A stretch of DNA of 64,000 nucleotides from a bacterium (GCA_965202625.1 CBDBBI010000010.1:1376001-1440000), one strand, 5' to 3'; numbered from the stretch's first letter, positions 15,379 through 32,598 are shown. Program-made: numbers and translations. The notes: generated by a model from the sequence alone, not told the origin.

Positions 15379-16541
15379 CTTTTGCCCCCCCCCCGTCTCT
15401 CATTATCTGCGGATAAGCCGCTCTTGGAGAGTTTCTCCAGAACGGATATGCAAGAATCCACTGAATCCATTGGCAAGCCGTCAAACGGGGCACGACAAAT
15501 CTTTTCCCACTCTCCTTTCACAAACCACTTATCAAGCAGTCCCGAAAAACCTTCAAACGAACACACCTCACAAAGCGTTCCGGGTAAATTTGCAGAAGCA
15601 CCCAGGACGTCCGATAAGGAATCCAGCCGGAGGCTGATCGTTGGTCGGCCACAACAAATGGCTTCATACAAAATCATGGAGTCGAATCCTAATATGAGGT
15701 TCGAGGAAAATACAACATCAAGGGCTGAGGGCCCGGAATCTATTTTCAAGTTGGGAAACGGCGACGCGGCGGTTCCCCATACTTCTCGCTCTCTGGGGTG
15801 AAGCCTCAGAAAAAAAATTGCCTCATGCCCCGCTTTACGTATTTTTTCCTCACAAAGGCGGAGTGCCTCCTCAATGATGGGAAGCCTCTCTCCCTTCAAG
15901 AATGGCTCAACAATCTGGGCTCGCCCAAGACCGGTAAAAACAGGCTGCGTAAAGAGAGAGCAAATAAAATCTTCTTTGCCGAGGTTGTTTTCTCGCCGAA
16001 AATTCACTTCGCTATCCCGCTTGGACAAAAGCAGCATCTCGAGATGGGGGCTTCCCACGACTACCATCCTGCTTGAGGAGACGCCCTCAGCAATTCCCTG
16101 GTCTCGCGATCGCGCGTCAATGACGCCGAGCACGTCTGGAAGATAAGAAAAATTCTTGTCCTCGTCATGTATTCTATGCCAGCCCCTCCAATCGTCCATC
16201 AGCGCGAAGCTCTTGAGCCCGAGTTGCCTCGCAGCCATGATAATGTATCCGTTTGAAGGGTCATAGTTATTGTTTGACGTTGTGCAGAATATTACGTCAG
16301 GAGACAGGCGAGAAAGCAGGTCGCACGCGCCTTCAATGCTGAGCGGCACTTGATTCACCAGAGTTTCAAGGGGGACAACCTCTATATCATGCGCTTTGAA
16401 TACTTCAATGGCGAAAAGATGCACTATTACGCACAGACGATATTTCTCCGGGCGAACAAGGCTTTTAACGACAGGTAAAATAGCGCGCGCGCCACCCGCA
16501 TCCTGGGCATAAACCAAAACAACAGGTCGGCAAGATTTCAA
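15375..16541 (-). CDS. Uncharacterised GT-B-like protein (candidate CMP-sugar transferase)
   Basis: DAGGA, DDW, VVGSPH, LRLHP, SMILYEAICCGRP. Confidence 0.6.
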   Translation of the reverse strand: MKSCRPVVLVYAQDAGGARAILPVVKSLVRPEKYRLCVIVHLFAIEVFKAHDIEVVPLETLVNQVPLSIEGACDLLSRLSPDVIFCTTSNNNYDPSNGYIIMAARQLGLKSFALMDDWRGWHRIHDEDKNFSYLPDVLGVIDARSRDQGIAEGVSSSRMVVVGSPHLEMLLLSKRDSEVNFRRENNLGKEDFICSLFTQPVFTGLGRAQIVEPFLKGERLPIIEEALRLCEEKIRKAGHEAIFFLRLHPREREVWGTAASPFPNLKIDSGPSALDVVFSSNLILGFDSMILYEAICCGRPTISLRLDSLSDVLGASANLPGTLCEVCSFEGFSGLLDKWFVKGEWEKICRAPFDGLPMDSVDSCISVLEKLSKSGLSADNERRGGGKR

Positions 16542-17827
16542 CCGAAACTTCTCAGGGCGTCGGCGTTCTTTCGGACCTTCTCGACTGCGAGAACAAATTG
16601 GTCAATTTCCCTTTCGGTGTTCGGGTATCGGCAAATGTTCGTCAAAAGCAAGTCCTTCTCCCAGAGCCGCTCGACAACCGGACAGGTTCCCTTCGCGTAT
16701 GACACGCCGCCCTCGCGCGCGTCGTCACGAAAAGGATAGCCTTTCGTCCCGTATGCGCTCCTCTTTTGATATATCGGTTCGAGATATATAGGTCGCACAT
16801 ACCCCTCCGTCACTTGAACGCCTTCCTCCCTGAGGGCTCTCGCAAAAATTTCACGGGGGATGCCCATTTTCGTTTCATCATACTTCATGGCGTAAAGGTA
16901 ATAGACATGCGTGCAGCCCCGAGCGGTTTCCGGAGGGGTCAAGAAATCAAACTCGGCCAGCTGCTGGGTCAGGTTCTCGGCGAGGCGAACCCGAATGCGC
17001 GTCAGTTCGTCCATCTTGCCGATTTGCGCAATGCCAACGGCTGCGCATATTTCCGGCAAGCGATAGTTAAAACCGACCATGTTCGTGATATCTTCCCGGC
17101 CCATGGGGCCAATCACAACCTCCCCGTGATTGCGTTTCAACTGCATATGAAGCGCCAGCTCTTCCTTGTCCGTTAAGGCAACCCCGCCCTCGCCGCACTG
17201 GATGACCTTGTGATAATTCAGGCTCTGAACACCTATGTCCCCTACGGCGCCCGTCTTTTTTCCCGCGCACTCTGCGAGTGGGGCCTGGGCGTTGTCCTCA
17301 ATGAGCATAAGTCCACGTCGGTCGGCAAGAGCGCGCAACTCCATCAATGGGGAGGGATGTCCAAACAGATTGACTGTGAGAATGGCGCGCGTTCTATCGT
17401 TTATCAAAGACTCCACCGAAGAAGGATCGATGCAGAACGTCGCATCCTCCACGTCGGCAAACACGGGGATCGCATTTTCCATGAGAATACTGCTCGCAGT
17501 GGCGCTCATGGTGAACGGGGATGTAATAATCTCCTCTCCAGGCTCAACCCCCGTCGCCGCCACCGCGCAATGCAGAGCCGACGTCGCTGAATTCACGCAG
17601 ACGGCGCGCTTCACGCCGAACCTTTCGGCAAATAACTTTTCAAGCTTCCTGACTTTCACGCCGCCGAGGAAACGCTCCGAATGCGTCCCCGAGAATCCTG
17701 AAAGATGTTGGCTTCTCAAGCTGCTAAGAACCTCTTTTTCCTCAGCCTGATCGACCATCGTGGTATGCACGGCGTAAGGTTCTTTGCGTATGGGCTCTCC
17801 ACCAAGAAGAGCTAATTTGCCGTTCAC
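16538..17827 (-). CDS. DegT/DnrJ/EryC1/StrS sugar aminotransferase
   Basis: NSATSAL, IEDNAQA, SLNYHKVIQCGEGG (PLP lysine), GFNYR. Confidence 0.93.
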   Translation of the reverse strand: MNGKLALLGGEPIRKEPYAVHTTMVDQAEEKEVLSSLRSQHLSGFSGTHSERFLGGVKVRKLEKLFAERFGVKRAVCVNSATSALHCAVAATGVEPGEEIITSPFTMSATASSILMENAIPVFADVEDATFCIDPSSVESLINDRTRAILTVNLFGHPSPLMELRALADRRGLMLIEDNAQAPLAECAGKKTGAVGDIGVQSLNYHKVIQCGEGGVALTDKEELALHMQLKRNHGEVVIGPMGREDITNMVGFNYRLPEICAAVGIAQIGKMDELTRIRVRLAENLTQQLAEFDFLTPPETARGCTHVYYLYAMKYDETKMGIPREIFARALREEGVQVTEGYVRPIYLEPIYQKRSAYGTKGYPFRDDAREGGVSYAKGTCPVVERLWEKDLLLTNICRYPNTEREIDQFVLAVEKVRKNADALRSFG

Positions 17828-17843
17828 ATGCGTTCCCCTCGCG

Positions 17844-18851
17844 TCAAATAGGGGTCACTTTCCTCATTATATCCGATGAGAGGACGGCTTCGCAAATTTC
17901 AATCGCCCTCACGCCGTCGCGCAGAGAACAAGAGGGCGCATCACCAACCTCCAGGCACCTTACAAGCTCCTCTACAGCCCGAAGAGAACTATTGCGCCAC
18001 TGCGTTTCCTCTGGTCGCCGAGCAAGTTCCAACACCTGGAACAAGCGAAAGTAGGGGTCTTCACGCGCTTGGAATCGAAGAAGTTTCTGGCCCCTTTGCC
18101 CAATGACGATTCTTCCTCTATCCGTGATGATATCCGCATCAAAGAGGACATACTCCAACACAGGAACGTGTAAAAACGTAGCGTATATCCCGCGCTCGAA
18201 AACAACGTCAAAATCCGCTCCAGAACCCCCAGCCTCATTGTCATTGTCAAACACCCTCAAAAGATGCACCTCTTTGGGGTCGCCAAAAAACCAACGCAGC
18301 AAATCAATATAATGGGAGGCGTTTTCCAACAAACCTTTTACGTAGTGCACAGTAACACGGATGACAGAGCCATGAATTCCACTCTCCAGCTCGCGCTTGA
18401 GTTGACGAAGAGTCGGGTTCCATCTCCGAAAGTAGTTCACCGCCACAGGCCGAGTCCCCGCGATAGAAATGGATTCACGCGCTTCTATGGATGATTGCGC
18501 AACTGGTTTTTCGAGGAAAACGGCTTTCACGTCTGCGTCGCAAACTGCGCGCAAAGCGTTGAGATGATGCGCCGTAGGCAGGCAAATACTCACGATATCG
18601 GGACGTTCCCGGTCAAGCATCTGATTGTAGTCCGCATACAACGTATCCACGCCCCAACGCCGGCCAAAAGCCGTCCGAGCGTCGGCGCTTACATCCGCAG
18701 CAGAGACAAGGTCGACGTCCGGGCAAGCCAGATACGCGCCCGCGTGCGTAGCGGTCCATTTGCCCTCGGAAAAATTATCGTATCGGGAGGCAATGTTCCC
18801 GCAGCCGATAATAGCCGCCTTATATGTGGCTTTGCCGCTGTTCAAAAACAC
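17844..18851 (-). CDS. Gfo/Idh/MocA oxidoreductase
   Basis: AAIIGCGNIA, FLEKPV, VNYFRRW, HYIDL. Confidence 0.9.
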   Translation of the reverse strand: MFLNSGKATYKAAIIGCGNIASRYDNFSEGKWTATHAGAYLACPDVDLVSAADVSADARTAFGRRWGVDTLYADYNQMLDRERPDIVSICLPTAHHLNALRAVCDADVKAVFLEKPVAQSSIEARESISIAGTRPVAVNYFRRWNPTLRQLKRELESGIHGSVIRVTVHYVKGLLENASHYIDLLRWFFGDPKEVHLLRVFDNDNEAGGSGADFDVVFERGIYATFLHVPVLEYVLFDADIITDRGRIVIGQRGQKLLRFQAREDPYFRLFQVLELARRPEETQWRNSSLRAVEELVRCLEVGDAPSCSLRDGVRAIEICEAVLSSDIMRKVTPI

Positions 18852-19611
18852 GCTGCTGAACGACCTGACGATTGATATCCAGAAGGCTTGGTTCCGTATC
18901 TAAAAGCCGCATCACATCGAATAGCGTGAAGCAAGGGTTCTTTGCATAAAGGCGGGTATAAATTGCGAGGATTAACTCGAAATCCTCCCGATTGTCTACA
19001 GTGAGACGGAGGCCCGGTCTGCGGCATTCCGACCACTTCCCCACCGCCTCAAAAGATTTTAGCCTGAATCTGTCTGGTCGTTCAAAAATATAGGAGGTGA
19101 CGTGCTCTCGATCGACAGGATCGTCGCTCCACCCAGCCACTTGCCTCAAGAGAGAAGTGGAGAAAATCTCCACGCTCGTTCCTATGGGAAACGTCGATTC
19201 TTCCTCCCATGAGGAGCTATGCCGCATCGAGGTATTCGCCACGTAATCGAATTTATCCGCAAGAAATAGTCCTACCATCTCATCAATAAGGAGCGGCTCC
19301 ACAAGAGGGGCATCCCCGCCGAGTTCGACAATTACGTCTCCATTCCACGCATCAGCCGCTTGGAGAACTCGGCTCAGGACGTCTTCCTCGCTACCTCGGA
19401 AACAACCCAGGCCGCTTTCTTCGGCCACTCGAACGATGGGGTCGTCAAGCGGATTTGTCGTGGTCGCGATGATCGCCGCGTCTAAACTCTTCGCTCTAAG
19501 CACCCTTTCCGCCATTTGCGCCAGCATGGGTTTTCCGCATACATCCAGAAGCACTTTTCCCGGCAACCTCAAGGAATTCATCCTGGCTTCGATGATGGCG
19601 ACGATTTTCAC
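18820..19611 (-). CDS. SpsF-like cytidylyltransferase family protein
   Basis: IEARMNSLRLPGKV, RGSEEDVLSR, DREHVT, RLTVD; GTG start overlaps upstream stop. Confidence 0.88.
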   Translation of the reverse strand: MKIVAIIEARMNSLRLPGKVLLDVCGKPMLAQMAERVLRAKSLDAAIIATTTNPLDDPIVRVAEESGLGCFRGSEEDVLSRVLQAADAWNGDVIVELGGDAPLVEPLLIDEMVGLFLADKFDYVANTSMRHSSSWEEESTFPIGTSVEIFSTSLLRQVAGWSDDPVDREHVTSYIFERPDRFRLKSFEAVGKWSECRRPGLRLTVDNREDFELILAIYTRLYAKNPCFTLFDVMRLLDTEPSLLDINRQVVQQRVFEQRQSHI

Positions 19612-20186
19612 TCGCGCTTCTCTTCTCGCATATCTTCCCAACGCACACGAAATATCCCCAATCGATATTCATCGACATAACCTGACCTACAGAAAAAACT
19701 CTCTTTGAGCGTCGCTTCATGGAGATACCCGTTTTTCTCAAAACTTCGTCTCGAACCCTCATTCGTCGCCCACATACCGGCCGTAATCTTCCGAAGGTTG
19801 AGCTTCTCGAAGCCATGGGCAGTCATGAGAGCGATGGCTTCCGTCGCAACGCCTTTTCCCCAGAAACGCCTGTCGCCAATGACGATGCTCATATCGCCCG
19901 TTCGATGGACCCAGTCGATCTTATGAATGCCGACGACCCCCACGAGCAAACTTTCATCTTCTTTCATGACAACGCCAAACTGCACGTCCGTTCGGCTCTT
20001 CATAAGAGCGTCGAATACCTCCCGCTGCCCCTCCTCGGTTACGGGAAACGTTCCCTTGTTGATATTCTGCGTGACCTCAGAGGAATTGAACCAAGCGTGC
20101 CAAACCGGAATATCTTCCGCTTTCAACGCACGGAGAAATACGCGTTGACCACTTCTAAACATGGGACGCCCTTCTGGGTTTCGCAT
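19608..20186 (-). CDS. GNAT N-acyltransferase (PseH/RimL-like)
   Basis: FWGKGVATEA, LNLRKI, NEGSRRSFEKNG. Confidence 0.88.
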   Translation of the reverse strand: MRNPEGRPMFRSGQRVFLRALKAEDIPVWHAWFNSSEVTQNINKGTFPVTEEGQREVFDALMKSRTDVQFGVVMKEDESLLVGVVGIHKIDWVHRTGDMSIVIGDRRFWGKGVATEAIALMTAHGFEKLNLRKITAGMWATNEGSRRSFEKNGYLHEATLKESFFCRSGYVDEYRLGIFRVRWEDMREEKRE

Positions 20187-20198
20187 TGGTCTTGCGAT

Positions 20199-21137
20199 TC
20201 ATGGCTTGAGCCAAGCCCTGCAATGCAGAAGATCGCCCACGCCCGCTTCCTGAAGTTGGCGCCGATAAAAATCATCCACCCCCTCAAGAACGTCTAAAAA
20301 AATCTTTCCCCGGGGGGTTTCTTTCCTGAGGAATTCGTTCGGAAAATTCAAATTCGTATGTTGGGAAGAACCAGTGTCGCCGCTTCCGGTATGCAGCCAT
20401 TTGAAATGATTCGTGAGAGAGGCCGCAAGATAGTGGGTGCACTCAAAATCATATCCGCATTCCATCAGAAGCCTGCCCAAGCTTTTCTCCGTAAAATAAT
20501 AAAGGTGATATTCACGGAAATAAAAATCCCTGTAATTCGCCACATCATAATAACTCGCAATCGGATCCAACAAGTTGGGAACGGCTATAAAAACAACGGA
20601 CTCTGGATGTATAAAGCGTTTCAAATCCTCCAAAAAATCCTTCACGCATGGAACGTGCTCAAGCACGGCGTGCATCACAACAACGTCGAATGGCAGTTCC
20701 GTCTCACAATCGATGAGGGGCTTGTCCCACACGGGAATACCGGCCGCATGTAACGTTCGAACGTGCGTGGGTGTAATCTCCACTCCCTGAACGTGCGAGA
20801 CATTTCCCTGAATCGACCGTAGAAACGATCCGCGCCCGCAACCAACGTCCAAAACGCGAGACTCCGAACACAAATAGGGCTCCACCTCTTTCTTGTAAAT
20901 TTTATAATTGTCGAACTTGGGAAGAGGTCTTTCTCTCAATTGATCGGGTGCGAAAACATAACCGTCATCCGAATACCAATCGTGGGTCGCCTGCGTTTCA
21001 TCCCAGGTTTCCAGAAAACTGAGGTCGCATGAACCGCAAAAATACAGAGCGATATTTACCTGCTGATCTATTTTTCTCCCCCGAACCGTATTGCGGATGC
21101 GCCGCCCACGGTCGGAACAGATGGGACAGAAACTCAT
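20199..21137 (-). CDS. Class I SAM-dependent methyltransferase with N-terminal CxxC pairs
   Basis: Start MSFCPIC (TAATG overlap at 21137); CGSC; VLDVGCGRG; FDVVVMHAVLEH; AVPN; HLYYF. Confidence 0.88.
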   Translation of the reverse strand: MSFCPICSDRGRRIRNTVRGRKIDQQVNIALYFCGSCDLSFLETWDETQATHDWYSDDGYVFAPDQLRERPLPKFDNYKIYKKEVEPYLCSESRVLDVGCGRGSFLRSIQGNVSHVQGVEITPTHVRTLHAAGIPVWDKPLIDCETELPFDVVVMHAVLEHVPCVKDFLEDLKRFIHPESVVFIAVPNLLDPIASYYDVANYRDFYFREYHLYYFTEKSLGRLLMECGYDFECTHYLAASLTNHFKWLHTGSGDTGSSQHTNLNFPNEFLRKETPRGKIFLDVLEGVDDFYRRQLQEAGVGDLLHCRAWLKP

Positions 21138-22513
21138 TATGCCGGAATCCCCTCGTATGATGACAGCGAACGCCATGGCGGCATAAAGCCTTGGGTCTGC
21201 ACGTCTTTCGCCATCTTCAGCAGGGAGAAGTCGTGATATCGTCGCGCGACGAGCTGCGCACCGAAAGGCAGGCCCTCGGAACTCTTGAACGTGGGCACGT
21301 TCATCGTCGGGACGCCGCAAAGCGTCCATATGAGGCAGTTGTCTTTTTTGTCCCGCCCCATGATTCCTTTCGGCGCATGACCAGAAGTGGACAAGTTCAA
21401 AATCATATCGAAATCTTCAAAAAAATCGGAAAGAATCGTTTTTAGATTTTCTTGCTGCTCTAAACCCTCCCAATATTGCTCGGAGGTAATCTTTTGGCCT
21501 TGCTCTATCATTTCCGAGAAAATATCGCTCAACTCGTCTCGATGCAACCGATATTCCTCATCAAAATAGTAAGACAGCCCTTTCTGATAGACGAGCGCAT
21601 GAATATCATGGGCGCGAGAGAACGGCTCAGGCAACTCAACCTCTCTTAATTCAACGTCTTCGCATCGGGATAGGTGGGACGCCAGCCGACAAACGGCGTC
21701 CTTCGCATACTCTTCCGCATGTTCCCAACCTGGGCCCCTGACAAACGCCACCCTGTATGGCGGCTTCACCTGGCTTGATGACCAGTCGTCAAGATTGTTT
21801 TTGACATACGGATAATTCGCTCCCCTTACTCGAGCGGATTCAAACATCAACCACAGATCATCAATAGTCCTTGCAAAAAAAGATACGTGATCCAAAGTGT
21901 CGAGGGTCTTCAGGATCCCCGTTCTGGGCACGACTCCAAAGGAGGGCTTAAAACCATACACGCCAGAATAACTCGCAGGCCGTATCGTGGAGCCTGCGGT
22001 CTGCGTGCCTAGCGAGAACGGAACCATACAAGCGGCAACAGATACGGCTGAACCGCTGGACGAAGTCCCAGGAGAATAGGCCGGGTTATACGGGTTCACC
22101 GTAGGCCCGGGATGATGAACGGCAAACTCCGCCGTGACGGTTTTGCCGAGCGTCAATCCGCCTTCCCTCTTGAGGTGAGATATTACCCGAGCGTCGTTGC
22201 CAGGGGTAAAGCCTTTCCAGATAGGACTTCCCATCCAGGTCTGAAAGTCCGCCGTGTTAATGACGTCTTTTACGCCGAAAGGCGCGCCCCAGAGAAGACC
22301 TTCGAACTCTCCCGCATTTATTTTCCGCTCTATTTCGCGCGCTTGGCGAATGGATATCTCCGGCTCAAAGTGCTGCCATGCGCAAAGAGAGGAGTCATAC
22401 CGCTCTACCTGCGCGATACAGGAAAGGAGCCATTCCACAAGGCTTAATTTTCTTTTTTTTATGAGTTCTATCGCTTCGATGGCAAAAAGCGCGTTCGCTT
22501 CCATATCGCTCAT
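21137..22513 (-). CDS. Amidase signature (GatA-like) enzyme
   Basis: GVKD, GTSSSGSA, GTQTAGSTIRPA: Ser-cisSer-Lys triad appears intact. Confidence 0.9.
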   Translation of the reverse strand: MSDMEANALFAIEAIELIKKRKLSLVEWLLSCIAQVERYDSSLCAWQHFEPEISIRQAREIERKINAGEFEGLLWGAPFGVKDVINTADFQTWMGSPIWKGFTPGNDARVISHLKREGGLTLGKTVTAEFAVHHPGPTVNPYNPAYSPGTSSSGSAVSVAACMVPFSLGTQTAGSTIRPASYSGVYGFKPSFGVVPRTGILKTLDTLDHVSFFARTIDDLWLMFESARVRGANYPYVKNNLDDWSSSQVKPPYRVAFVRGPGWEHAEEYAKDAVCRLASHLSRCEDVELREVELPEPFSRAHDIHALVYQKGLSYYFDEEYRLHRDELSDIFSEMIEQGQKITSEQYWEGLEQQENLKTILSDFFEDFDMILNLSTSGHAPKGIMGRDKKDNCLIWTLCGVPTMNVPTFKSSEGLPFGAQLVARRYHDFSLLKMAKDVQTQGFMPPWRSLSSYEGIPA

Positions 22514-22515
22514 TT

Positions 22516-23658
22516 CTATGCGGAGTCAATTATTCCCACTTGATCGGGCCGAATGACTTTGGGCAGCTCCCGCGCCTGCCCCTCTCTCTGGCTCTCAAGG
22601 AGATCCAGAAATTCTTCTTCCGTGTATCCCGTGATCTCCAAGTAATAATCAAGCGCTCCGGGACGTTTCGAGTCAACTTTCCGCGCAAGCGCAAACCCCT
22701 CTTCACGCGACATAATTCCGTTTCTCACATCTATGCTCGCCTGGTCGGTACCTCTTCCAAACCCACGTTTTACCCACTTCGAATAATCGTGCACGCCCGC
22801 CATACGGCATTCCACGCTTTTGTATCCTTTATAAGCACCCTCGACCTTATCTTCACGCCACCCATATTCTCTTTTTATGAACTCCACCTGGCGTTCTCCG
22901 TCCCAAAACAGATAATCCCCTAAGTGGATTCCCCGCATACCGAGCGTATCAAGCTCTTCTTTGGGGGGAATAAGAAAAGGAAACAGATCGCGCTCTGTCA
23001 GCCCAATATCTTCATCTACCATTTTTGATGAATCCACCTTCATCGAAACCTTCAAGTATAAGGTTTCGTCATACGGGAGAGGATCAGCGTATGTTGACTT
23101 GCTACCCAATTCAGCGGTTGACTCTCCCCAAACCATAAGGGGGATCCCATATTGCGTCGCCACTTTTAGAGGATAGGCTCCCACGCCTGCGTGACAATGC
23201 CAACAGGAATCGCCGATCGTCGTCAAAGATTTCCGGGCGATTTTGTTAATCACCCCTCGGTTCGGCGTGAACATGACATGGTCAACGTTAAACTTTTCCA
23301 AGCAATTTTGCAGATTCCACCAGCCGGTTTCTGTCCACCAATTATGGCTAAACGTGCAAGTGAGAGGTCTTAACCCATAAACTCGCGTCAGAACGTGAAG
23401 CTGAAAACAGCTATCTTTGCCCCCGCTTATAGGGACCAGGCAATCATAGTTGTCCCCTGCTTCAGCCTTCGCCTTTTCCAATATACTTTTTAACTGCGCC
23501 TCCCGTTCTATCCAATTGATGTGCATCTTCATTTCAGAACTGCGGCACGCCTTACAAATTCCAAGCGCGTCAAAATCCATTCCCTCTGAGGTCTCCGGCA
23601 TGCAGCACCGCACACAATATCGCAACTCTGAAAAAGGAGCGTTTCTCGAAGCCGGCAT
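22516..23658 (-). CDS. N-acetyl sugar amidotransferase (WbuX/WbpG/PseA family)
   Basis: CVRCCMP..GICKAC, PP-loop SGGKDS, CWHCH, WGE, KRGFGR. Confidence 0.9.
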   Translation of the reverse strand: MPASRNAPFSELRYCVRCCMPETSEGMDFDALGICKACRSSEMKMHINWIEREAQLKSILEKAKAEAGDNYDCLVPISGGKDSCFQLHVLTRVYGLRPLTCTFSHNWWTETGWWNLQNCLEKFNVDHVMFTPNRGVINKIARKSLTTIGDSCWHCHAGVGAYPLKVATQYGIPLMVWGESTAELGSKSTYADPLPYDETLYLKVSMKVDSSKMVDEDIGLTERDLFPFLIPPKEELDTLGMRGIHLGDYLFWDGERQVEFIKREYGWREDKVEGAYKGYKSVECRMAGVHDYSKWVKRGFGRGTDQASIDVRNGIMSREEGFALARKVDSKRPGALDYYLEITGYTEEEFLDLLESQREGQARELPKVIRPDQVGIIDSA

Positions 23659-23726: not shown

Positions 23727-25001
23727 TTACGAAGCCTGTGGAATCAAAGGCATGATTTGTCCTGCCTGTCGAAGCACCATGACCTTGGATTCTGGCCCCG
23801 TCGCTTCCAATGCGTTATCCACCGCCGCCTGTATGGATGCAGACCAGCCAAATCCCATCCTGTTCGCTTCCTCCTGATGGACGTGAGGAGAAACCAATAT
23901 GCCCTTCACGCGCTTCGAAATGATTCTGCCAACAGCAATCAGCGTATAGGCCAAGAGCTTTTCGCGAAACTCCCCCGCTTCAACGGCTCGATAAAGCGAA
24001 TCGGGCTCCCGAAACCCGTAGCGTTCGAAATTCGGAAATTGCGGAGAAACACCCTCACGACAATCCGAAGCCAACACGATAATCCCGTTATCCCGACACA
24101 CGACATCCGCCGCACACACGGCTTTGATGGCCTGACGAAGATCGATGTCAGACGGATAGGCTTCGACGACAACGACGTCCGCCGTTCCATCCACCGGCAC
24201 CCCGTATAATTCCAGACATCGATCACACCCTGTTTTGTGTGCGCATTCCACATCGCCTGCAACGGCATCATAGATTCTTTCATCGTCTATCATAACCGTG
24301 TTGACGATGAAACGGACGCCAGCCTGACGCGCAATGCGAACGCACGCCTTCCTCACCTTGTTGTGAAAATTCCCGAGAATTTCGCTCATCTCATAATCCA
24401 GAGCAGACCAATGCGTCGCTTCTATCGTCGCCTCTCCGCAAACGCCGGGCATGACGCTCTTCGCCCCACCAGAGAACCCCGCAGTCGCATGAGGGATGAT
24501 GCTGCCGACGGAGATGAGAAAATCCGATTTCAATACTTCCTTGTTCATCTGCACGTCGAAGCCGAGTTTACTCCGTCCTAACGAAGTCAACGCCGCAGGG
24601 TTGTCCCATTCATGGTTGAGAATTTGAAACCGAGAGGCCAGATGATGACCGAACTTGCGCTGTATCTCCTCCTCCGTCATGGCGCGATGCGTGCCCAAGC
24701 CAATCAGAATGCGAACACACGCATCCGGAACGTCGGCCTCAGCGAGTTCCTCCAGAATGAAGGGGAGGACGCGATGAAGCGGAGTGTGGCGCGTATTGTC
24801 ATCCGTAGCAATCAACACCCTCTTCGCCCCTCTGGCCATCTCTCTGAGAGGGGGAGTACCGATTGGGTTGCGAATTCGCTCCCTAAGAGCGCGCTCGTCA
24901 AGCCCTTCACCGTTCGGCGGCGAGGGTCCATACACGCCCATCAGACGCTCATCTCTCACCTCAAAGTCTTCAAACGGGCCCTTCGTGAGAGATATTTTCA
25001 T
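23727..25001 (-). CDS. larA: LarA-family nickel-pincer-dependent alpha-hydroxy-acid racemase/epimerase
   Basis: DDNTR, GLGTHR, NHEW, IPHATAGFSGGAKSVMPG, EATH, QAIKA; likely start MKISL at 25001. Confidence 0.88.
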   Translation of the reverse strand: MKISLTKGPFEDFEVRDERLMGVYGPSPPNGEGLDERALRERIRNPIGTPPLREMARGAKRVLIATDDNTRHTPLHRVLPFILEELAEADVPDACVRILIGLGTHRAMTEEEIQRKFGHHLASRFQILNHEWDNPAALTSLGRSKLGFDVQMNKEVLKSDFLISVGSIIPHATAGFSGGAKSVMPGVCGEATIEATHWSALDYEMSEILGNFHNKVRKACVRIARQAGVRFIVNTVMIDDERIYDAVAGDVECAHKTGCDRCLELYGVPVDGTADVVVVEAYPSDIDLRQAIKAVCAADVVCRDNGIIVLASDCREGVSPQFPNFERYGFREPDSLYRAVEAGEFREKLLAYTLIAVGRIISKRVKGILVSPHVHQEEANRMGFGWSASIQAAVDNALEATGPESKVMVLRQAGQIMPLIPQAS

Positions 25002-25017: not shown

Positions 25018-26868
25018 CTAATCTTTCCATAATTTTGCATCCGTCGAACAGAACATGTCCACCCATTCTGAACGCCAGTTTTTACCACCCCGATAATAAC
25101 GATACGCAAATGCGCTTACCGCTTCTTGCGTCTCGCTATCCTCCCACCACGAATCCACGTCAGGCCAGACGGCGTTCAAATGTCTCGCCGCGCTCTCCGG
25201 AGATGAGTGATGCACTTTCACTTCTCTCAATTTTTCGATATCGGACTTCGCATCACGCGAAACCCTCCAAACATTTTCGTTCCAGAAAAAAATAGTGGGT
25301 ATGCCCGCCGCCATCGTGAATGCCGCAGTTGTCCCCATGTAAGGGAGAACGCAAACCCTGCATTGGGCTAACGCAGGGGACATCCGACCAGATAGGAGCC
25401 CCACCAATTTCTCGGTGAGTATTTGGACGCCAGAGCACTTTTCCTGCACGTAGCGCTGGACATATCGAAGGCCAACCGCTGTGGGATGAGGCTTGTAAAA
25501 CAAAGTGGAGCGAAGGGCATCGTTTAGGTGACGGATGAAATGCACCTCGTCCACCATATGTTGCGGGATGTCTTCGGGCAGATGATCCGTTGCCAGCAAT
25601 TTTGAATACACAATTAGGCACGAACCTATCAAAACGATGGATGAATTCCGCTTTCGACTTCGCTTTACTTTTGAAAGAAGGGGGGATGCGGCCGGCACTG
25701 CGGTTACTTGATAATCAGATTGAACCTCCCACCCCCACGATATGAATCTATCCGCCGCCTTATACTCGACAAGGTGGTACCAAGGATGCGCTTCCTTTAG
25801 GCCGTAACCTCCCCCATGCTGATTGACAACCAGACGGACAGGACGCCTCTCCAGCAGATTGGACACGTAGAATTTTGCTTGGTCGTCAGTCCCTAAAACA
25901 GGGCCACATGCGATGGTGTCCGTCCAAGGTGACGTCGCTTTTATCTTTACCAAAGCCTTTTTCTCGTTTGCTCGAAAATCATCCGTGAACGCTTTGGGCA
26001 TCGTTTCTTCAATGAGCCCATCCACAACCTGCAAGAAAATCTCGGCTTCTCTGGCGTCAATATCTTGAATGGATCCGATCTCTTCCATGATGTCGTCTTT
26101 GGAGATACTCCCATTTTTCGCTTCAGATTTTTTCTGAAATGATTTTACGGCATCCTTACATCGTCTTGCGTTTCGAAATCGCATCCGAAGAGCCATATAA
26201 AAGCTATCGAATGGATTCAAGCCCTGTACTCTGAGAAACTGCACATATCCCAGATTAGAAGCCAAAATATGGGCCCAGTGGTAAATTTCCAATTTTCTGT
26301 TCGGCTTCTTGAACTTAGCATAGTTTTCTCGTGTGAATAGATTTGCATGCTCCTCCGGTGCAGGCGCGCCATCTCGCATCACCCATCCCGCCGGCCGATA
26401 TGCGCGGAAAAAACGGCTGAAAATAAGCCGGTTCAGCGGATCCTGGAATATCAGATAATCAAAATGGGATGTCGTAACCGAGGAGAGGCTTTCATCCTGA
26501 GGCGCGAGATATACCAGATATGGGGTGTTGCTCTTTAGCTGATTGCGGATTCGCAAAAACCGCTCAAAAGAACATATGACTACCCTCAAAAGCCATCCCA
26601 TCAACAATATGCGCCAATATCGCTTGGAATAAGAACGTCGGTGCCTTTCGTTTTGCAGATGTCTCAATTTGGCGACGTAAAATTCACAAACCCTCTCCAG
26701 CTTTTGCGAGACGGGCAAAATATCCTCATGCTTGATCACTCGGCGGATTCCATGTTTTTCCCATCCCCACTGAAAAAACTGCGCATCTGAAAGGGACCAC
26801 GGACCCAGATGCTCGGCTTCATATTCGCTTGAGATGGGATCCATTCTCGTAAGGATGAGTTGCTTCAA
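25018..26868 (-). CDS. Putative transferase, LIC12162/TIGR04331-like
   Basis: LGPW, RYWRILL..WL, QHGGGYG, FISWGW, YKPHP, WW; glycan-locus context. Confidence 0.7.
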   Translation of the reverse strand: MKQLILTRMDPISSEYEAEHLGPWSLSDAQFFQWGWEKHGIRRVIKHEDILPVSQKLERVCEFYVAKLRHLQNERHRRSYSKRYWRILLMGWLLRVVICSFERFLRIRNQLKSNTPYLVYLAPQDESLSSVTTSHFDYLIFQDPLNRLIFSRFFRAYRPAGWVMRDGAPAPEEHANLFTRENYAKFKKPNRKLEIYHWAHILASNLGYVQFLRVQGLNPFDSFYMALRMRFRNARRCKDAVKSFQKKSEAKNGSISKDDIMEEIGSIQDIDAREAEIFLQVVDGLIEETMPKAFTDDFRANEKKALVKIKATSPWTDTIACGPVLGTDDQAKFYVSNLLERRPVRLVVNQHGGGYGLKEAHPWYHLVEYKAADRFISWGWEVQSDYQVTAVPAASPLLSKVKRSRKRNSSIVLIGSCLIVYSKLLATDHLPEDIPQHMVDEVHFIRHLNDALRSTLFYKPHPTAVGLRYVQRYVQEKCSGVQILTEKLVGLLSGRMSPALAQCRVCVLPYMGTTAAFTMAAGIPTIFFWNENVWRVSRDAKSDIEKLREVKVHHSSPESAARHLNAVWPDVDSWWEDSETQEAVSAFAYRYYRGGKNWRSEWVDMFCSTDAKLWKD

Positions 26869-26920: not shown

Positions 26921-28036
26921 TCAAGTGATAAAATGCGAATGATGAGACGCTCTCCCAAGCGCATCCCATGTCAATTCTTCGCCCGCTCGCATTCGGCGGG
27001 TTACTCGTCTTCCGATTACTCTATCCACTTCATATGGCGGGATGGCCCCTTGAGGAGCGGGTCTCAGAACTTCAATGTGTTCCCGCGCAATGACGGCCCC
27101 GACTTCCAAATCAGACCGAGCGCGCAAACATCTTCTTTGCAAAACCGCAGTGTCTCGCTCGTTCTCGCTTATCACCTTTTCCCTTCTTCCCAGAGCCAAT
27201 TCCAATTCCCGGGTTCTATCGACCATCTCCCGCCAGGCATCAGGCGTCATCGAAAAGATATGATCGGGACCCCTTCGATTGACGTCATCCGTAAAATGCT
27301 TCTCGACGATTCTCCCCCCCAACGCAATCGCCCCCAAAACCGTCGCATGGCCGGGCGTATGGTCAGACAAACCGAGGATCAACGAGGGATAAAGCGCCCG
27401 GAACGCGCTCAAAACGTTCAGATGTATATGCTGAAAATTCTCCATTGACCCCGTATAGTTCGTGTTGCACTGGAGAAGCGCCAACTCTTCGTTGCGCCGC
27501 AAAATACACTTGACCGCCTGTTGGACGTCTTGCAAGTCCGAGGCGCCGGTTGCGAGCATGACGGGCTTTCCCTTTTCCGAAATCTTTTGGAGCATTTCAT
27601 GCCATGTAATGTCTCCTGAGCCAATTTTATACACATCCACGTACGGCTCAAGAAAATCCACCGCCTCAAAATCATACGGAGATGAAAAAAAATCAATCCC
27701 TGCCTCATCACAGCAAATTTTAAGCGCCTCCGTCCATTCCCAGGGGAGGGAGGCGTCTTCATAAATCTCATATACCGACTTTTCCCATGCAGCCTGATGG
27801 GACAACTTGTCCGCCATGGCGTCAAACCCATGTTCACTCACAATTTCAGGGGCGCGAAAATGTTGAAACTTCGCCGCGTCGGCCCCCGCCTCCTTCGCGA
27901 GATGAACAAGCCGCTTTGCGCGCTCAAGGCTACCATCATGGTTGGCTGCGATATCGGCGATGAAATATGTCGGATGGTCGTCTCCAATCCATCGACCTCC
28001 AACACGGAAATTCGGCATATTCAGGAATCCCTCCAC
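26921..28036 (-). CDS. neuB: NeuB-type nonulosonate synthase (PseI-like)
   Basis: IADIAANHDG, AKFQH, SSPYD, KIGSGD, GLSDHT, VEKHFT, SAF domain. Confidence 0.9.
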   Translation of the reverse strand: MEGFLNMPNFRVGGRWIGDDHPTYFIADIAANHDGSLERAKRLVHLAKEAGADAAKFQHFRAPEIVSEHGFDAMADKLSHQAAWEKSVYEIYEDASLPWEWTEALKICCDEAGIDFFSSPYDFEAVDFLEPYVDVYKIGSGDITWHEMLQKISEKGKPVMLATGASDLQDVQQAVKCILRRNEELALLQCNTNYTGSMENFQHIHLNVLSAFRALYPSLILGLSDHTPGHATVLGAIALGGRIVEKHFTDDVNRRGPDHIFSMTPDAWREMVDRTRELELALGRREKVISENERDTAVLQRRCLRARSDLEVGAVIAREHIEVLRPAPQGAIPPYEVDRVIGRRVTRRMRAGEELTWDALGRASHHSHFIT

Positions 28037-29152
28037 TCACCCCAACAGACGATCGTAGGCGTCAAACAATTGCACGACGTTCTTCGTCCAGTTCGCCTGC
28101 TTTTCCACGAGCATCCTGTTTTCGAGAGACATCTTTTCTCTTTCCCGTCTTTTTTGATATGCCTGCAAAATCGTCTCGCCCAAAATTTCCGCATCTCCGG
28201 ATGGATACAACCACCCGTTCTTCCCTGGAGCCACCCATTCCCGATTCCCGTATTCATCCACGACGACAACAGGAAGACCGCAACCCATGGCTTCCAGCAG
28301 GCTCACCGACGTCCCATCGCTGAAAGTCGCGCTCACATACAAATCCGCCTCATTGAAATAATCCACCAATTGATGGTTGGGCATCTGGCCGGGTAGATGA
28401 ATATAACGCGCGAGTTCATTCTCGTCTATAAACTTCTCCACCCTGGATCTTAAACTCCCGTCGCCGAGCATGATGACCCTTATGTTCGAGCGAGATTTTT
28501 TCGCCCGCTTTATCGCCTCCAAAAAAACGAAGGGCCCGTGAATCGGCTCAAACGCTCTTGTGCTGATGACGACGAAGAAATTTTCCCAATTCAACTTTTT
28601 TCGCAATCCAATTTTTGACTTTCTGGGCGTGAACTGCTGCACGTCAATTCCCCAAGGGAAGAACACTACCTGCTCGTCTCTTAAAGGAGACAAGGATAAC
28701 ACCCGCTCTCGGACAGCATCGCAATCTCCCAAAACCATATCCGCGCGCTTCAGCGTGAATTTCGTTATCCAGCGCATCCACCGGTTTTTATCAGGAAAAA
28801 CCAAAACGTCTGAACCCCATGACACGACGAGCAAGGGCGTTGACTTGCAAATGGAGGCTACAAAGGCGCCCGTCTGCACGGGGCCCGCATGAATAAGGTC
28901 TGGCTTGCTTTCTCGAACACGTTCCCGAAATCGAAAAATCAGCCTTGCCCACTCAAAAATGCCTGGGGCGTCTTTATTTTTTAGCAAGGGTGGAAGTTTG
29001 TTGATCTTCTCAGGGAAAGGGCGAGATTCATACTGGAAGGAACTGTCAGCAAACGGCAAGAACCAAACGTCGCGCCCTGATTTCGCCAACGCCTCCAAAA
29101 ACCTTCTGTCGTGCGTCGAATATCCCTGTGATATGTAGAGGATTCTACTCAT
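28037..29152 (-). CDS. GT4 family glycosyltransferase
   Basis: SWGSD, ISTR, SDGTSVSLLEAMGCG. Confidence 0.9.
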   Translation of the reverse strand: MSRILYISQGYSTHDRRFLEALAKSGRDVWFLPFADSSFQYESRPFPEKINKLPPLLKNKDAPGIFEWARLIFRFRERVRESKPDLIHAGPVQTGAFVASICKSTPLLVVSWGSDVLVFPDKNRWMRWITKFTLKRADMVLGDCDAVRERVLSLSPLRDEQVVFFPWGIDVQQFTPRKSKIGLRKKLNWENFFVVISTRAFEPIHGPFVFLEAIKRAKKSRSNIRVIMLGDGSLRSRVEKFIDENELARYIHLPGQMPNHQLVDYFNEADLYVSATFSDGTSVSLLEAMGCGLPVVVVDEYGNREWVAPGKNGWLYPSGDAEILGETILQAYQKRREREKMSLENRMLVEKQANWTKNVVQLFDAYDRLLG

Positions 29153-30092
29153 TACAATAAGCCATCAACCAACCCGGCAAATGCCCTTTTAAGGATTCCA
29201 CAAACCCCGTTCGCAAAGAATCGTGAAATTTTCTCACCCCATCCTCTATCGTTGGCATGGAGTGTCCAAGTAAATTCGATATTTTCTCAACGCGCAAAGT
29301 GGTGTTTTGGGGCCGTTTCGCAGCAAATGGAAACGCCACCACCGACGTCGGCGCAATGGACGTTGCATCCAGAACGAAAATATCCGCCAGCAGAACAGAA
29401 AACGCATGTTTCGAGCAGGCGTCAGAAGCACCCGCATGATATACGCCCTTCGCTCTTATATTCACCAACTCCAGAATGATCTGGGCCAAATCGCCCGCAT
29501 ACAGGGGCGCAAAATACACGTCCGTGAACATCCCCAGCGTTTCTTTTTGCAGCAACCCGCGCAATATCCACTCTCCCAAACTCAATTTATCCTGAAAATT
29601 CCACCCGTATAGATTCGTTCTCAAGATCAAACTGTGCGGACAAACCGCGCGCACCACTTCCTCTCCCATGAGTTTCGATCGCGCGTATGCGTTCAGAGGC
29701 CCCGGTGCATCCTCCTCTGAATACCGCCCCCGCGCGCCATCAAAAACCGAGTCGGTCGATACGTAAAGAAGAAACGACTTGTTGGCGTGAGCCCATTCCG
29801 CGAGGTTCGACGACGCGAGAACATTTTGCCTCTCAGCCAATTCCGGGTCTTTCTCGCACGCATCCACATTGGTCATCGCCGCGGCGTGAACGATGATGTC
29901 GGGCGCGATCTGGTTCAAACACCGATGGGCGGGGCCCTTTTCGGACAGATCGCATCGTATCCATTTCAAACGGGAAGAGCGGATAGGGACGGAACGCGAG
30001 ACGCCAAATACGCTATATTGTTTTTTCGTCGCACAAAAAATCAGATTGCTGCCCAACAGCCCACTCGCGCCTGTGACAAGCAGCTTAGAAAT
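29145..30092 (-). CDS. RmlD-like dTDP-4-dehydrorhamnose reductase family SDR; probable ATT start
   Basis: In-frame KLLVTGASGLLG lies upstream of the ORF-track start; HAAAMTNVD, STDSVFDG, YARSK. Confidence 0.85.
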   Translation of the reverse strand: MSKLLVTGASGLLGSNLIFCATKKQYSVFGVSRSVPIRSSRLKWIRCDLSEKGPAHRCLNQIAPDIIVHAAAMTNVDACEKDPELAERQNVLASSNLAEWAHANKSFLLYVSTDSVFDGARGRYSEEDAPGPLNAYARSKLMGEEVVRAVCPHSLILRTNLYGWNFQDKLSLGEWILRGLLQKETLGMFTDVYFAPLYAGDLAQIILELVNIRAKGVYHAGASDACSKHAFSVLLADIFVLDATSIAPTSVVAFPFAAKRPQNTTLRVEKISNLLGHSMPTIEDGVRKFHDSLRTGFVESLKGHLPGWLMAYCNE

Positions 30093-30204
30093 TTGGAATC
30101 ACCCCCCAAGGCTCGGACATCATTACCCGGCCCGACGCGAAATTTATATTTCCCTTTCCCAGCCATATCGCGACAAGCGACAAGAAAGGAAATTCAGCCA
30201 TCGC

Positions 30205-30891
30205 CTACGTGTTTTCCCGATAATCATACAAAGATTCCGCGATGTGCAGATGAATCGGCTCATCAATATCGAAGGCATGCGCCTCAGGAATTTTATATGG
30301 ACTGAGGCGCTCTCCATAAAACGTTCTTTCCCTCTCAAGAGCATCAATTCTTGCGATGTAAAATGAGCCGCTATTCACAAACACTTCGGGTAGAAGCTGC
30401 TTCTGCCGAAAATACTCGCTTCCAAAAGCAGGCTTCAAAAACCCGTTTTCCTCGACAGAGGCCCAAAACGGCGAGTAGAAGTATTTCGTCACGGCCATCA
30501 CAAAATCGCACGCCCCGTTTTCGAAAATCTCATGGCCTCCCCTGAGATCGTCTGGCCGGAGAAGAGCAGCGGTCGGGAAAATAACGCAAAGGCTGTCTAT
30601 CTCCTTGTTGCATCTGCGCAACCAACCCACAAAATCAAGACTAACTTGGACGAGGGTGACGGAATCAGCCGCCAACTCAAGAGGGCGTTCATGGATGAGA
30701 GCGCCTGCATTTTTAGAGATTTCGCCGATAGCATCGTCATCGGTGGAGACCCATATATCCTCAAACAAACCCGATGCCGTTGCCGTCTCAATCGTATGCG
30801 CAATGAGCGGTTTATTCTTGAACAAAGCGATATTCTTTGAGGGAAACCTTTTTGATCTGCCGCGAGCCGGTATGAGGCAGGTTATTGCCAC
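30205..30891 (-). CDS. CMP-nonulosonate synthetase (PseF/NeuA-like)
   Basis: IPARGRSKRFPSKN, VSTDD, PTA, DIDEP. Confidence 0.9.
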   Translation of the reverse strand: MAITCLIPARGRSKRFPSKNIALFKNKPLIAHTIETATASGLFEDIWVSTDDDAIGEISKNAGALIHERPLELAADSVTLVQVSLDFVGWLRRCNKEIDSLCVIFPTAALLRPDDLRGGHEIFENGACDFVMAVTKYFYSPFWASVEENGFLKPAFGSEYFRQKQLLPEVFVNSGSFYIARIDALERERTFYGERLSPYKIPEAHAFDIDEPIHLHIAESLYDYRENT

Positions 30892-31053
30892 CGTCCTCTC
30901 CCCAAAATGTGCATGGTAATTACAATGGATTCAAATACAAAGAACGCCCATTTTAGATTTCACGTTGTTAAAATCATGGAGACCGCACCACACGAGGACA
31001 TCAACGCGCGCAAATCACATCAGCGGAAAACGACGCATTCACTCCAAGGTCCT

Positions 31054-32136
31054 TCAATCACTGAACAAGTCCGAAAGTTCCAAGCGGTGCCCCGGGGGCA
31101 AGTCTCTTTGCAGACGCGCGTCCGAGAGCCTTTCGAAGGTATCGGGCGCAAGCGCAAAACCCGGGCGGCGAAAGTCCACCTTCAAGTCCGAGAGCCTATC
31201 GCCTTTTTTGCCCCCCTCCACCAAGAAAACGCTGCGGCGCATCATCCGTCGCCTATCCAACTCCGCAGGCTTCATGACGCGCCGTGGAAGCCCCATCGCA
31301 ATCTCGAGATCGCGCATCACGTGAATAAATTTTTTCACATCAGGAGGCTCCAGCGAAAACATGTACTCGGGGCCTCTAGTCGTTCGATCAAAAGTGAGGG
31401 TTTTCTCTATTAAGTTTGCGCCAAGTGCCACCGCCGCGATGTCCATATCCCATCCCGGCGAATGATCGGAATAAGCGATCGGGAAGGGAAACATTTGTTT
31501 CAGCGTCTTAATGATGTTCAGATTGATGCTGGGGAGGCGCGCGGGGTAGCCAGAAGGGCATTGGTGAATAATGATGTTTTCATTATCTTCTTCTAAAATT
31601 GCTTCAACCGCATTCTCTACCTCTCCAATCGTGGAATTCCCCGTATCCAACTGCACGCACATGCCAGTTTTCGCAACCCGGCGAATTAACGGCAAGTGAT
31701 TCACGTCCGCAGACGCAATCTTAATCGAGTGACAACCTAATTTTTCCATTAAATCAACTTCTTCCTCAAAACCAATCGTCGCGAAAAAAGCCAGTCCCAT
31801 GTCGTCACTATAGCTCTTCAATGCCGTCCATTCATCGTCGCTCATCGCTCTGCGACACATAATTTCATACAGCGATTCACTCACCGTCTCCGTCTTCTCG
31901 GTCGCCCTGTCGACCAACACGTCATATTCAATCTCTACCTTCCTATCCGAACATAAACGATCCGGATCCAAAACTTGAAACTTAATAGCGTCCGCCCCGC
32001 ATTCAGCGGCAAGTTTCACCAGCTTCTTAGCCGAGTCCAAACCATCGTGGGTCGGGCCAGCCTCGAACGTTACAAAAACAGGGTGCCCATCTCCTACCTG
32101 CCTATCGCCGAAATGTACCATCAACGAAACCCTCAA
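31054..32136 (-). CDS. neuB: NeuB-type nonulosonate synthase (variant EAGPTH motif)
   Basis: FEAGPTHDG, IKFQ, KIASAD, YSDHS, IEKTLT, MRRSV. Confidence 0.88.
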   Translation of the reverse strand: MRVSLMVHFGDRQVGDGHPVFVTFEAGPTHDGLDSAKKLVKLAAECGADAIKFQVLDPDRLCSDRKVEIEYDVLVDRATEKTETVSESLYEIMCRRAMSDDEWTALKSYSDDMGLAFFATIGFEEEVDLMEKLGCHSIKIASADVNHLPLIRRVAKTGMCVQLDTGNSTIGEVENAVEAILEEDNENIIIHQCPSGYPARLPSINLNIIKTLKQMFPFPIAYSDHSPGWDMDIAAVALGANLIEKTLTFDRTTRGPEYMFSLEPPDVKKFIHVMRDLEIAMGLPRRVMKPAELDRRRMMRRSVFLVEGGKKGDRLSDLKVDFRRPGFALAPDTFERLSDARLQRDLPPGHRLELSDLFSD

Positions 32137-32598
32137 AGTTCATCATGCCTTGAAAACCGAGAACATCGCTCAGCCTTCAAAGGCAATACAATAATACGTC
32201 CAGGAATTTTCCATATATTTGGCGCAAAAAATGGGGAGCAAACATCAGCACCCAATACCCCAGAAACCCTTTCGCAAAAACCACATCCCTAAGCAAATCC
32301 AAAAATGGTTTTCTTTTCTCTATCGCCTCCTTATGTCATGGCTCAATATCCAAACGCTTCTACTCTAGGTGCCACTATGGCTGAGGCGTATCGCAAGCCC
32401 GGGGGATGAGACATGACCTTCGGCTTCTTGCTGCTTGCCTCCAGCGCATCCGCTTATGGACCTTATATTCCCCGCTCCATAGCTCGAATACCGCGATCAT
32501 TATAAAATCACCCTTATTTTCGCCACAGAATCAGCATCCGCCTCAAAAGGCAAGGTTGCGCATCAAGCCGAAAACGGAGGCCAACGTCGAGGAAATTT

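Follow-up and report, generated by a model that had tools for sequence, protein, structure and literature searches.

We describe here a LarA homologue (hereafter LarAH) encoded at positions 23727..25001, on the minus strand, of a 64,000-nucleotide stretch of bacterial DNA (GCA_965202625.1 CBDBBI010000010.1:1376001-1440000, hereafter the window). This 424-aa protein is a predicted nickel-pincer-nucleotide (NPN)-dependent 2-hydroxy-acid epimerase or racemase and belongs to a glycan-associated clade. We found that this clade is tied, across phyla, to two sialic-acid-type genes, i.e., a cytidylyltransferase-NeuB fusion (hereafter NeuA-NeuB) and a GT2 glycosyltransferase fused to a NeuA-like domain (hereafter GT2-NeuA-like). 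LarAH and these two partners occur together in at least seven phyla and in three gene orders.

Such a link seems to be undescribed. In the literature consulted, the characterised LarA homologues all act on free hydroxy acids, and the roles considered are mainly catabolic. In the accessible parts of PMC11770544, PMC7583248, and PMC11796402 we found no mention of sialic acid or polysaccharide, nor, in those of PMC11770544 and PMC7583248, of nonulosonic or neuraminic acid. Conversely, no nickel-pincer enzyme was found in the accessible parts of the literature on NeuB/NeuA pathways. Our full-text search, which did not extend to Table S1 of PMC7583248 (25 LarAH groups), returned no link between LarA and nonulosonic acids. 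The first-pass annotation of the window (a reading made from the sequence alone) knew of no described case of a nickel-dependent control of a glycan acyl substituent.

Domains, fold, and active-site residues

The open reading frame of LarAH starts with an ATG at 25001 and ends with the stop codon at 23727-23729, its 424 codons including no internal stop. Upstream and downstream of LarAH are read here on the minus strand, which corrects the usage of the first-pass annotation. Pfam recognises Lar_N (E=3.5e-56) and LarA_C (E=1.2e-10) in the protein, and its AlphaFold model, built on 15 sequences, has a mean predicted local distance difference test score of 86.6. This model superposes on LarA and malate racemase structures with template-modelling (TM) scores of 0.78-0.83 (Foldseek E-values of 1e-33 to 1e-35); the score is 0.82-0.83 for the LarA structures and falls to 0.61 for the gluconate epimerase GntE2 (4NAR).

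The residues on which LarA chemistry depends can be followed one by one in the alignment to L. plantarum LarA (5HUQ). The DxTR motif (D68, T70, and R71) corresponds to D72, T74, and R75, and in the GTH motif (G103-T104-H105), H105 pairs with the catalytic H108. In the H171...AGFSGG.K181 motif, H171 is the catalytic H174 and K181 the cofactor-tethering K184, while H197 aligns with the nickel ligand H200, and the Q290 and K293 of the QxxK motif with the carboxylate-binding Q295 and K298. All the motifs that the first-pass annotation had reported are thus seen in this alignment. Moreover, the NPN-binding, catalytic, and carboxylate-binding residues, including K181, H197, R71, and D68, are invariant in the 34 sequences of the clade. 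By its domains, fold, and residues, LarAH is an intact protein of the LarA superfamily, i.e., of nickel-pincer type, for which NPN binding and isomerase activity are predicted.

On the other hand, LarAH falls below the cut-off of every named NCBIfam family of NPN enzymes. The best match is malate racemase LarAH6 (NF052593), with 298 bits for a cut-off of 500, followed by lactate racemase (NF033504; 280 bits, equivalog cut-off of 460), LarAH10 (263 bits, cut-off of 540), and the gluconate-type families (88 and 73 bits, below cut-off). LarAH is therefore a member of the LarA superfamily, yet of no characterised group. It is not a lactate racemase sensu stricto either, for it has A172-T173, and not the bulky hydrophobic F-F pair, after the catalytic histidine.

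LarAH shares with L. plantarum LarA the two-domain fold (TM score of 0.82), the lysine tether, the nickel-ligand histidine, the pair of catalytic histidines, the Arg/Gln/Lys carboxylate site, and the presence of LarB, LarC, and LarE genes in the genome. It differs in its overall sequence (around 30% identity), in its A-T loop, in an arginine replacing Y294, and in the location of its gene, which neighbours neither larBCE nor a lactate permease but belongs to a glycan locus. A role in envelope synthesis exists for L. plantarum LarA as well, since it provides D-lactate for peptidoglycan. As to the malate racemase Mar2/LarAH6 (6D6Z), the extra cationic residues in the pocket of LarAH suggest a second anionic group on the substrate, as for malate in the accessible text of PMC7583248; in contrast, these residues are R289 and K348, not Y172, K173, and K351, and the gene context is another one. 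The D-gluconate 2-epimerase GntE (LarAH14-16; 4NAR), a catabolic and not a biosynthetic enzyme, is more distant, with only 88 bits and a TM score of 0.61.

Linkage to two nonulosonic-acid genes across phyla

In the window, the first partner gene (13786..15378, minus strand) encodes a 530-aa NeuA-NeuB protein carrying the Pfam domains CTP_transf_3, NeuB, and SAF, whose N-terminal P-loop is canonical and whose best match in the PDB is SpsE (1VLI). The second (12352..13746, minus strand) encodes a 464-aa protein with a Glycos_transf_2 domain and a partial CTP_transf_3 domain. Its NeuA-like domain has a diverged P-loop: the canonical basic P-loop is absent in the clade, and alignments to NeuA structures start after it. 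The NeuB-family synthases and CTP_transf_3 cytidylyltransferases are what the locus has in common with the known NeuB/NeuA pathways (SpsE/SpsF, LegI/LegF, and PseI/PseF); the partners differ from these in being fusions and in falling below the NeuB and PseI cut-offs.

We scanned one genome per prokaryote species and obtained 56 loci, against which the window proteins were compared by tblastn. In 30 loci the LarAH protein is at least 43% identical to that of the window; 25 others hold more distant LarA homologues (at most 42% identity). Both partners are present in 28 of the 30 loci, and NeuA-NeuB in 29. The two exceptions are limited by the available sequence, since the flank of L009 ends just past the NeuB fusion and L022 is a contig of 3.2 kb. 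On the contrary, neither partner gene was found near any of the 25 distant LarA homologues. According to their labels, the carriers belong to Nitrospinota, Bacteroidota, Planctomycetota (three lineages), Verrucomicrobiota, Thermodesulfobacteriota, Omnitrophota, and Candidatus Zymogenus, to which is added a "Deltaproteobacteria" metagenome-assembled genome (MAG) labelled Myxococcota. For all 19 loci that do not belong to Nitrospinota, the gap between LarAH and the GT2-NeuA-like gene is 0-298 nt, and in 18 cases it stays within 50 nt. The order transferase, LarAH, NeuA-NeuB, GT2-NeuA-like is that of the 12 ordinary Nitrospinota-type loci (L010-L021). The only genes conserved with LarAH are thus NeuA-NeuB and GT2-NeuA-like.

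The same association is observed at a finer scale. Among 51 genomes of the phylum, 22 carry a LarAH orthologue (at least 65% identity), and full-length GT2-NeuA-like and NeuA-NeuB genes are found in these same 22 genomes plus one more, G041. Neither LarAH nor either partner is encoded by three genomes that belong to the same genus and whose completeness is 95-99%. LarAH and its two partners are gained and lost together within the phylum.

These results bear directly on the interpretation of the first-pass annotation, which had placed LarAH in a nonulosonic-acid operon. The setting is the one it described. Of the three circumstances that it named as speaking against its reading, two were looked for, and neither was encountered: the closest homologues do lie in glycan loci, and larB, larC, and larE are present in the genome. 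Its link to a glycan and the cofactor supply are thus upheld, while the mechanism that it proposed is not, as detailed below.

A distinct clade with its own pocket residues

We built a maximum-likelihood tree of 58 LarA homologues, in which the NeuB-associated LarAH proteins form one clade of 34 rows (Shimodaira-Hasegawa-like approximate likelihood ratio test, SH-aLRT, of 100). Three rows of this clade are labelled as lacking the partners, and they correspond to the sequence-limited loci L009, L022, and L023. The clade has a signature of its own. Right after the catalytic H171 come A172-T173 (H-A-T); position 289 is an arginine, for a tryptophan or a tyrosine in the other 24 rows (Y294 in L. 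plantarum); position 322 is a phenylalanine, for a histidine in 23 of the other 24 rows; position 348 is a lysine or an arginine; and Y352-T353 complete the set.

The accessible text of PMC7583248 assigns the two residues after the catalytic histidine to a substrate-recognition loop (FF in lactate racemase, YK in the malate racemase Mar2, and ES in the gluconate epimerase GntE2), and makes a cationic residue in helix 14 the probable binder of the second carboxylate of malate. GntE is an example of a LarA homologue that epimerises C2 of a sugar acid; according to the same text, small residues after its catalytic histidine make room for a large substrate. The small A-T loop and the two extra cationic side chains of the clade therefore suggest a substrate larger than lactate and bearing a second anionic group.

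The sister clade, found in Neomoorella and Peptococcaceae, is encoded in an operon (L041:5175-13826, with relatives in L037, L039, L040, and L042) together with a TRAP transporter (DctPQM), two SDR proteins, an FGGY kinase, and a D-2-hydroxyacid dehydrogenase. The LarA homologue encoded there probably epimerises a sugar acid during catabolism.

Cofactor supply

The source genome (3.09 Mb, 99.7% complete) contains adjacent larE, larB, and larC genes at C10:375360-378120, i.e., 1 Mb from LarAH. In a profile search of the genome, all three were above their cut-offs, with 290 bits for LarB (cut-off of 175), 455 bits for LarC, and 335 bits for LarE (cut-off of 150). The genome holds exactly one Lar_N gene, which is LarAH.

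The wider GT2-NeuA-like module

A metagenome scan seeded with the GT2-NeuA-like alignment gave 547 relatives, from which 80 loci were kept. LarAH adjoins the GT2-NeuA-like gene in four of the 38 loci with a near full-length match (L067, L070, L073, and L114), and also in L112, where the match is partial. Of the 20 loci flanked by 3 kb or more in both directions, three have LarAH, five a D-2-hydroxyacid dehydrogenase, 12 neither, and none both. These numbers (3, 5, 12, and 0 of 20) are too few for a mutual exclusion of LarAH and the dehydrogenase to stand as a statistical result, and we dropped it. The dehydrogenase can be very close to the GT2-NeuA-like gene in loci devoid of LarAH, with gaps of 0 nt in L081, 21 nt in L092, and 68 nt in L083. 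This proximity makes a 2-hydroxy-acid or 2-keto-acid step in the module plausible, and in that respect speaks indirectly for the first-pass annotation. We also noticed a D-isomer-specific 2-hydroxyacid dehydrogenase beside the GT2-NeuA-like gene in other nonulosonic-acid-type loci without LarAH (L071, L084, and L091).

In close relatives without LarAH, the slot between GT2-NeuA-like and NeuB is occupied by other genes, i.e., a B12-binding radical-SAM protein (L069), a Zn-alcohol dehydrogenase (L066 and L074), or a prenyltransferase-like protein (L072). Given this variety, LarAH looks like one of several alternative tailoring enzymes plugged onto a common NeuB/NeuA/GT2-NeuA-like module.

As a side observation, the GT2-NeuA-like family (L066-L114) is large and uncharacterised, and its NeuA-like P-loop is non-canonical throughout. 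Its usual neighbours are NeuB and a separate cytidylyltransferase, plus ABC exporters and asparagine-synthase-like or carbamoyltransferase genes.

Proposed role and alternative explanations

The chances seem to us evenly balanced that LarAH is a functional NPN enzyme which, as a tailoring member of an acidic surface-sugar module, acts on a sugar-like 2-hydroxy acid. In the mechanism that we propose, the NeuA-NeuB fusion would make a sugar acid and activate it with cytidine monophosphate (CMP). LarAH would invert the carbinol carbon next to a carboxylate, via a transient hydride transfer to the NPN cofactor, which would be made by the LarB, LarC, and LarE of the genome itself. The configuration of the substrate would be set before the NeuA-like/GT2 protein, whose NeuA-like domain would be sugar-acid-binding, handles it. 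We predict that this sugar-like 2-hydroxy acid exceeds lactate in size and carries a second anionic group. Aldonic and 3-deoxy-aldonic acids would be candidates, as would uronic or ulosaric acids taken by their hydroxy-acid end. LarAH would then be, not a lactate racemase of central metabolism, but a member of an old, horizontally spread module for nonulosonic-acid-type surface sugars. A larger sugar acid is favoured because of the pocket signature, the sugar-acid-catabolic sister clade, and the lack of a conserved acyl-activating partner.

A more ambitious version of this proposal, which we put forward tentatively, gives the NPN cofactor an anabolic and glycan-dedicated role, the clade setting the configuration of an unrecognised acidic sugar building block. 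This block might, for instance, be made from the NeuB product and be either a 3-deoxy-aldonic or a dicarboxylic "ulosaric" acid, and the NeuA-like domain of the GT2 fusion would bind or activate it; in the sister loci, a D-2-hydroxyacid dehydrogenase might set the same stereocentre instead. If this were true, at least seven phyla would have a new class of surface-sugar residues and a cell surface whose chemistry depends on nickel. With a clade so firmly attached to sialic-acid-type genes, the nickel-pincer cofactor would acquire a biosynthetic function in the glycans of the cell surface, and this dependence on nickel would then apply to marine nitrite oxidisers as well as to other lineages. 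LarAH could also reveal what an uncharacterised group of LarA proteins acts on, and perhaps an acidic sugar that is new, and the widespread GT2-NeuA-like fusions, a family still uncharacterised, are flagged as part of nonulosonic-acid pathways.

Several points weigh against the involvement of LarAH in sugar-acid tailoring. For canonical LarA chemistry, the carbon that neighbours the carboxylate must bear both a hydrogen and a hydroxyl. Since C2 of a nonulosonic acid has no hydrogen, the unmodified NeuB product cannot be a substrate of this chemistry, which leaves another acid, a small hydroxy acid that is free at first and is added to the glycan afterwards, or a non-canonical chemistry. The sugar-acid substrate itself is hypothetical, and both the profile scores and the fold, being nearer to the small-acid racemases than to the gluconate-type epimerases, favour a small hydroxy acid. 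The presence of LarAH in only three of the 20 well-flanked metagenome loci makes it an optional add-on of the module. As for the cofactor, its pathway is not retained for LarAH alone: of the 51 genomes of the phylum, 43 encode LarC and only 25 a Lar_N protein. In 19 of the 51, among which are two complete genomes of the same genus, LarC occurs and every LarA homologue is missing, which suggests another user of the nickel-pincer cofactor in these genomes. In other lineages, LarC was found in three of the five genomes bearing the trio, these being MAGs of unknown completeness. Finally, the tree was obtained with a quick method.

The first alternative explanation, possible although in our opinion rather unlikely, is that the substrate of LarAH is a small hydroxy acid in free form, such as lactate, glycerate, or malate, and that its racemisation supplies the enantiomer with which a nonulosonic-acid glycan is then substituted (acyl, ester, or aglycone). 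The profile scores and the fold of LarAH, closest to those of malate and lactate racemases, agree with it. Nonulosonic acids with hydroxy-acyl groups do exist, such as Pse5Am7Gra in Tannerella, whose genetic basis is stated to be unknown in the accessible text of PMC5378307, and D-2-hydroxyacid dehydrogenases, which convert keto acids into D-hydroxy acids, adjoin the GT2-NeuA-like gene in loci without LarAH. The window locus itself holds both a GNAT protein and a 2-hydroxyacid dehydrogenase. The first-pass annotation had proposed a nickel-dependent control of the stereochemistry of a glycan acyl substituent, possibly in partnership with the D-isomer-specific 2-hydroxyacid dehydrogenase encoded at the far end of the locus (1084..2064, minus strand; Pfam 2-Hacid_dh_C, 3.1e-51). 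Neither idea finds support in the comparison of loci, the dehydrogenase being at most a possible partner. Indeed, this dehydrogenase, which is below every NCBIfam cut-off (the best being PGDH, with 228 bits), has no counterpart within 10 kb at any of the other 30 loci. No acyl-activating enzyme, ligase, CoA-transferase, or acyltransferase was found to be conserved with LarAH in the compared loci, NeuA-NeuB and GT2-NeuA-like being its only constant companions, and the block going from WbuX to GNAT is a lineage-specific insert (see below). The A-T pair after the catalytic histidine and the two extra cationic residues are also unlike what the accessible text of PMC7583248 reports for characterised lactate racemases. 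We considered the AMP-ligase at 36497 as an activator of the hydroxy acid and rejected it: it is part of a conserved and unrelated flank, together with an amidohydrolase, EamA, and phosphonate ABC transport genes.

A second alternative, clearly improbable, would be a hidden-redox epimerisation or isomerisation by the NPN cofactor, with the nonulosonic acid itself, or its CMP derivative, as the substrate and with a reacting carbon away from the alpha position of the carboxylate. The site could be C4 or a side-chain carbinol, and the arginine and the lysine of the clade would anchor the C1 carboxylate or a phosphate. The full conservation of the carboxylate-binding and two-histidine apparatus argues for an ordinary alpha-hydroxy-acid chemistry instead. 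What makes it worth stating is the position of LarAH, tight against the gene of the NeuA-like domain, the other redox or radical tailoring enzymes found in the same slot in sister loci, and the LarA subfamily for which an action on non-acid carbohydrates is proposed in the accessible text of PMC12611868.

Lastly, it is very unlikely that LarAH is an ordinary catabolic hydroxy-acid racemase that landed by chance in a variable glycan island, for even if such islands are mosaic and that of the window carries at least two inserts, the adjacency survives three gene orders in no fewer than seven phyla, the genes disappear jointly within one genus, and the LarAH clade is monophyletic.

The surrounding locus

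LarAH is located in a glycan locus of 33 kb, carried on one strand, that goes from around 33.7 kb down to a Wzz-like gene at the start of the window. This locus contains three NeuB-family genes (13786-15378, 26921-28036, and 31054-32136), five CTP_transf_3 domains, PseB, DegT, GFO, GNAT, and WbuX proteins, several glycosyltransferases, and an ABC exporter. It thus combines, on one strand, a NeuB-family synthase, a CMP-sugar-acid cytidylyltransferase, and precursor enzymes, as is expected of a nonulosonic-acid locus, and seems to encode up to three different nonulosonic acids.

Directly upstream of LarAH lies a gene for a 616-aa transferase of the LIC12162 family (25018..26868, minus strand; TIGR04331, 305.8 bits for a cut-off of 225), likely a transferase for an acidic sugar. 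Its TAG stop codon (25018-25020) is followed by a spacer of 16 nt containing GGAG before LarAH starts, exactly as the first-pass annotation had counted. The transferase gene is also the direct upstream neighbour of LarAH in the 14 Nitrospinota-type loci L009-L022. EamA directly precedes the LIC12162-family gene in 11 loci (given as L010-L014 and L016-L020); L015, L021, and L022 begin too near this gene to show it. In the window, a pseudaminic-acid-type module coding for PseB (469.5 bits, cut-off of 407.75), NeuB, PseF-like, RmlD-like, GT4, and NeuB proteins (26921..33666, minus strand) is inserted between this conserved flank (AMP-ligase, amidohydrolase, and EamA) and the transferase/LarAH module. 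We also noticed that the LIC12162-family protein and a second large putative transferase (4258-6453, 731 aa) have no Pfam domain. The families concerned, TIGR04331 and TIGR04326 (the latter below cut-off), were first defined in Leptospira O-antigen regions, and both proteins are likely transferases for acidic sugars.

On the other side, eight genes (15375..23658, minus strand) separate LarAH from NeuA-NeuB. They encode a WbuX N-acetyl-sugar amidotransferase (330 bits, cut-off of 203), an amidase, a methyltransferase, a GNAT protein, a KdsB-like cytidylyltransferase, a GFO oxidoreductase, a DegT aminotransferase, and a 388-aa protein. The first four follow LarAH in this order and on the same strand, the Pfam and NCBIfam matches agreeing with the earlier identification. 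The block from WbuX to the 388-aa protein is absent from the 12 ordinary Nitrospinota-type loci. It follows LarAH in the window and in L009, is rearranged in L023, and is found in G041 on a contig ending before the expected position of LarAH. The WbuX-amidase-methyltransferase-GNAT part is a lineage-specific insert of the window, L009, L023, and probably G041. The GatA-like amidase beside WbuX may supply ammonia for acetamidino formation. As listed, the reading frames of the amidase (21137-22513) and of the methyltransferase (20199-21329) overlap by 193 nt, and the true start of the latter is probably further downstream.

After the module comes an ABC exporter gene (8492..10264, minus strand; membrane and ATPase domains by Pfam). 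Homologous exporters likewise come after GT2-NeuA-like in L025 and in nine Nitrospinota-type and six metagenome loci.

A scan of 12000-30500 for promoters and terminators gave counts that were not above those of shuffled sequences. A complex prediction for LarAH and the GT2-NeuA-like protein scored 0.00, which weighs neither way. In four marine metatranscriptome runs of one study, we found contigs at least 99% identical to scattered parts of 12000-30500, with only six single-letter differences across the four runs. Three of them map on LarAH, of which one spans the transferase-LarAH junction (24702-25114). Since metatranscriptome libraries can contain DNA, this hints only weakly at the presence of the locus in the sea, and possibly at its transcription there.

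Fused forms of LarA

We also looked for longer, fused forms of LarAH. A search at 743-2120 aa brought up no such form, a negative of little weight; the 150 best LarAH representatives all have 445 aa or fewer; and an Atlas look-up returned generic lactate-racemase clusters only. The 713-aa reading frames of Desulfobacterales loci were rejected as fusions, since they result from upstream read-through in another frame. In an archaeal phylum reached through L059, a search for NeuA-LarA fusions yielded another kind of fusion, a protein of 783 aa (L146:5604-7955) that consists of a complete LarA (Lar_N and LarA_C) followed or preceded by a 4Fe-4S dicluster and two cysteine-rich CCG domains (HdrD/GlcF-like). 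Its gene is flanked by translation-factor genes and by the gene of a pterin-binding enzyme, and open frames of 784-792 aa resembling it are present in G162, G268, and G301.

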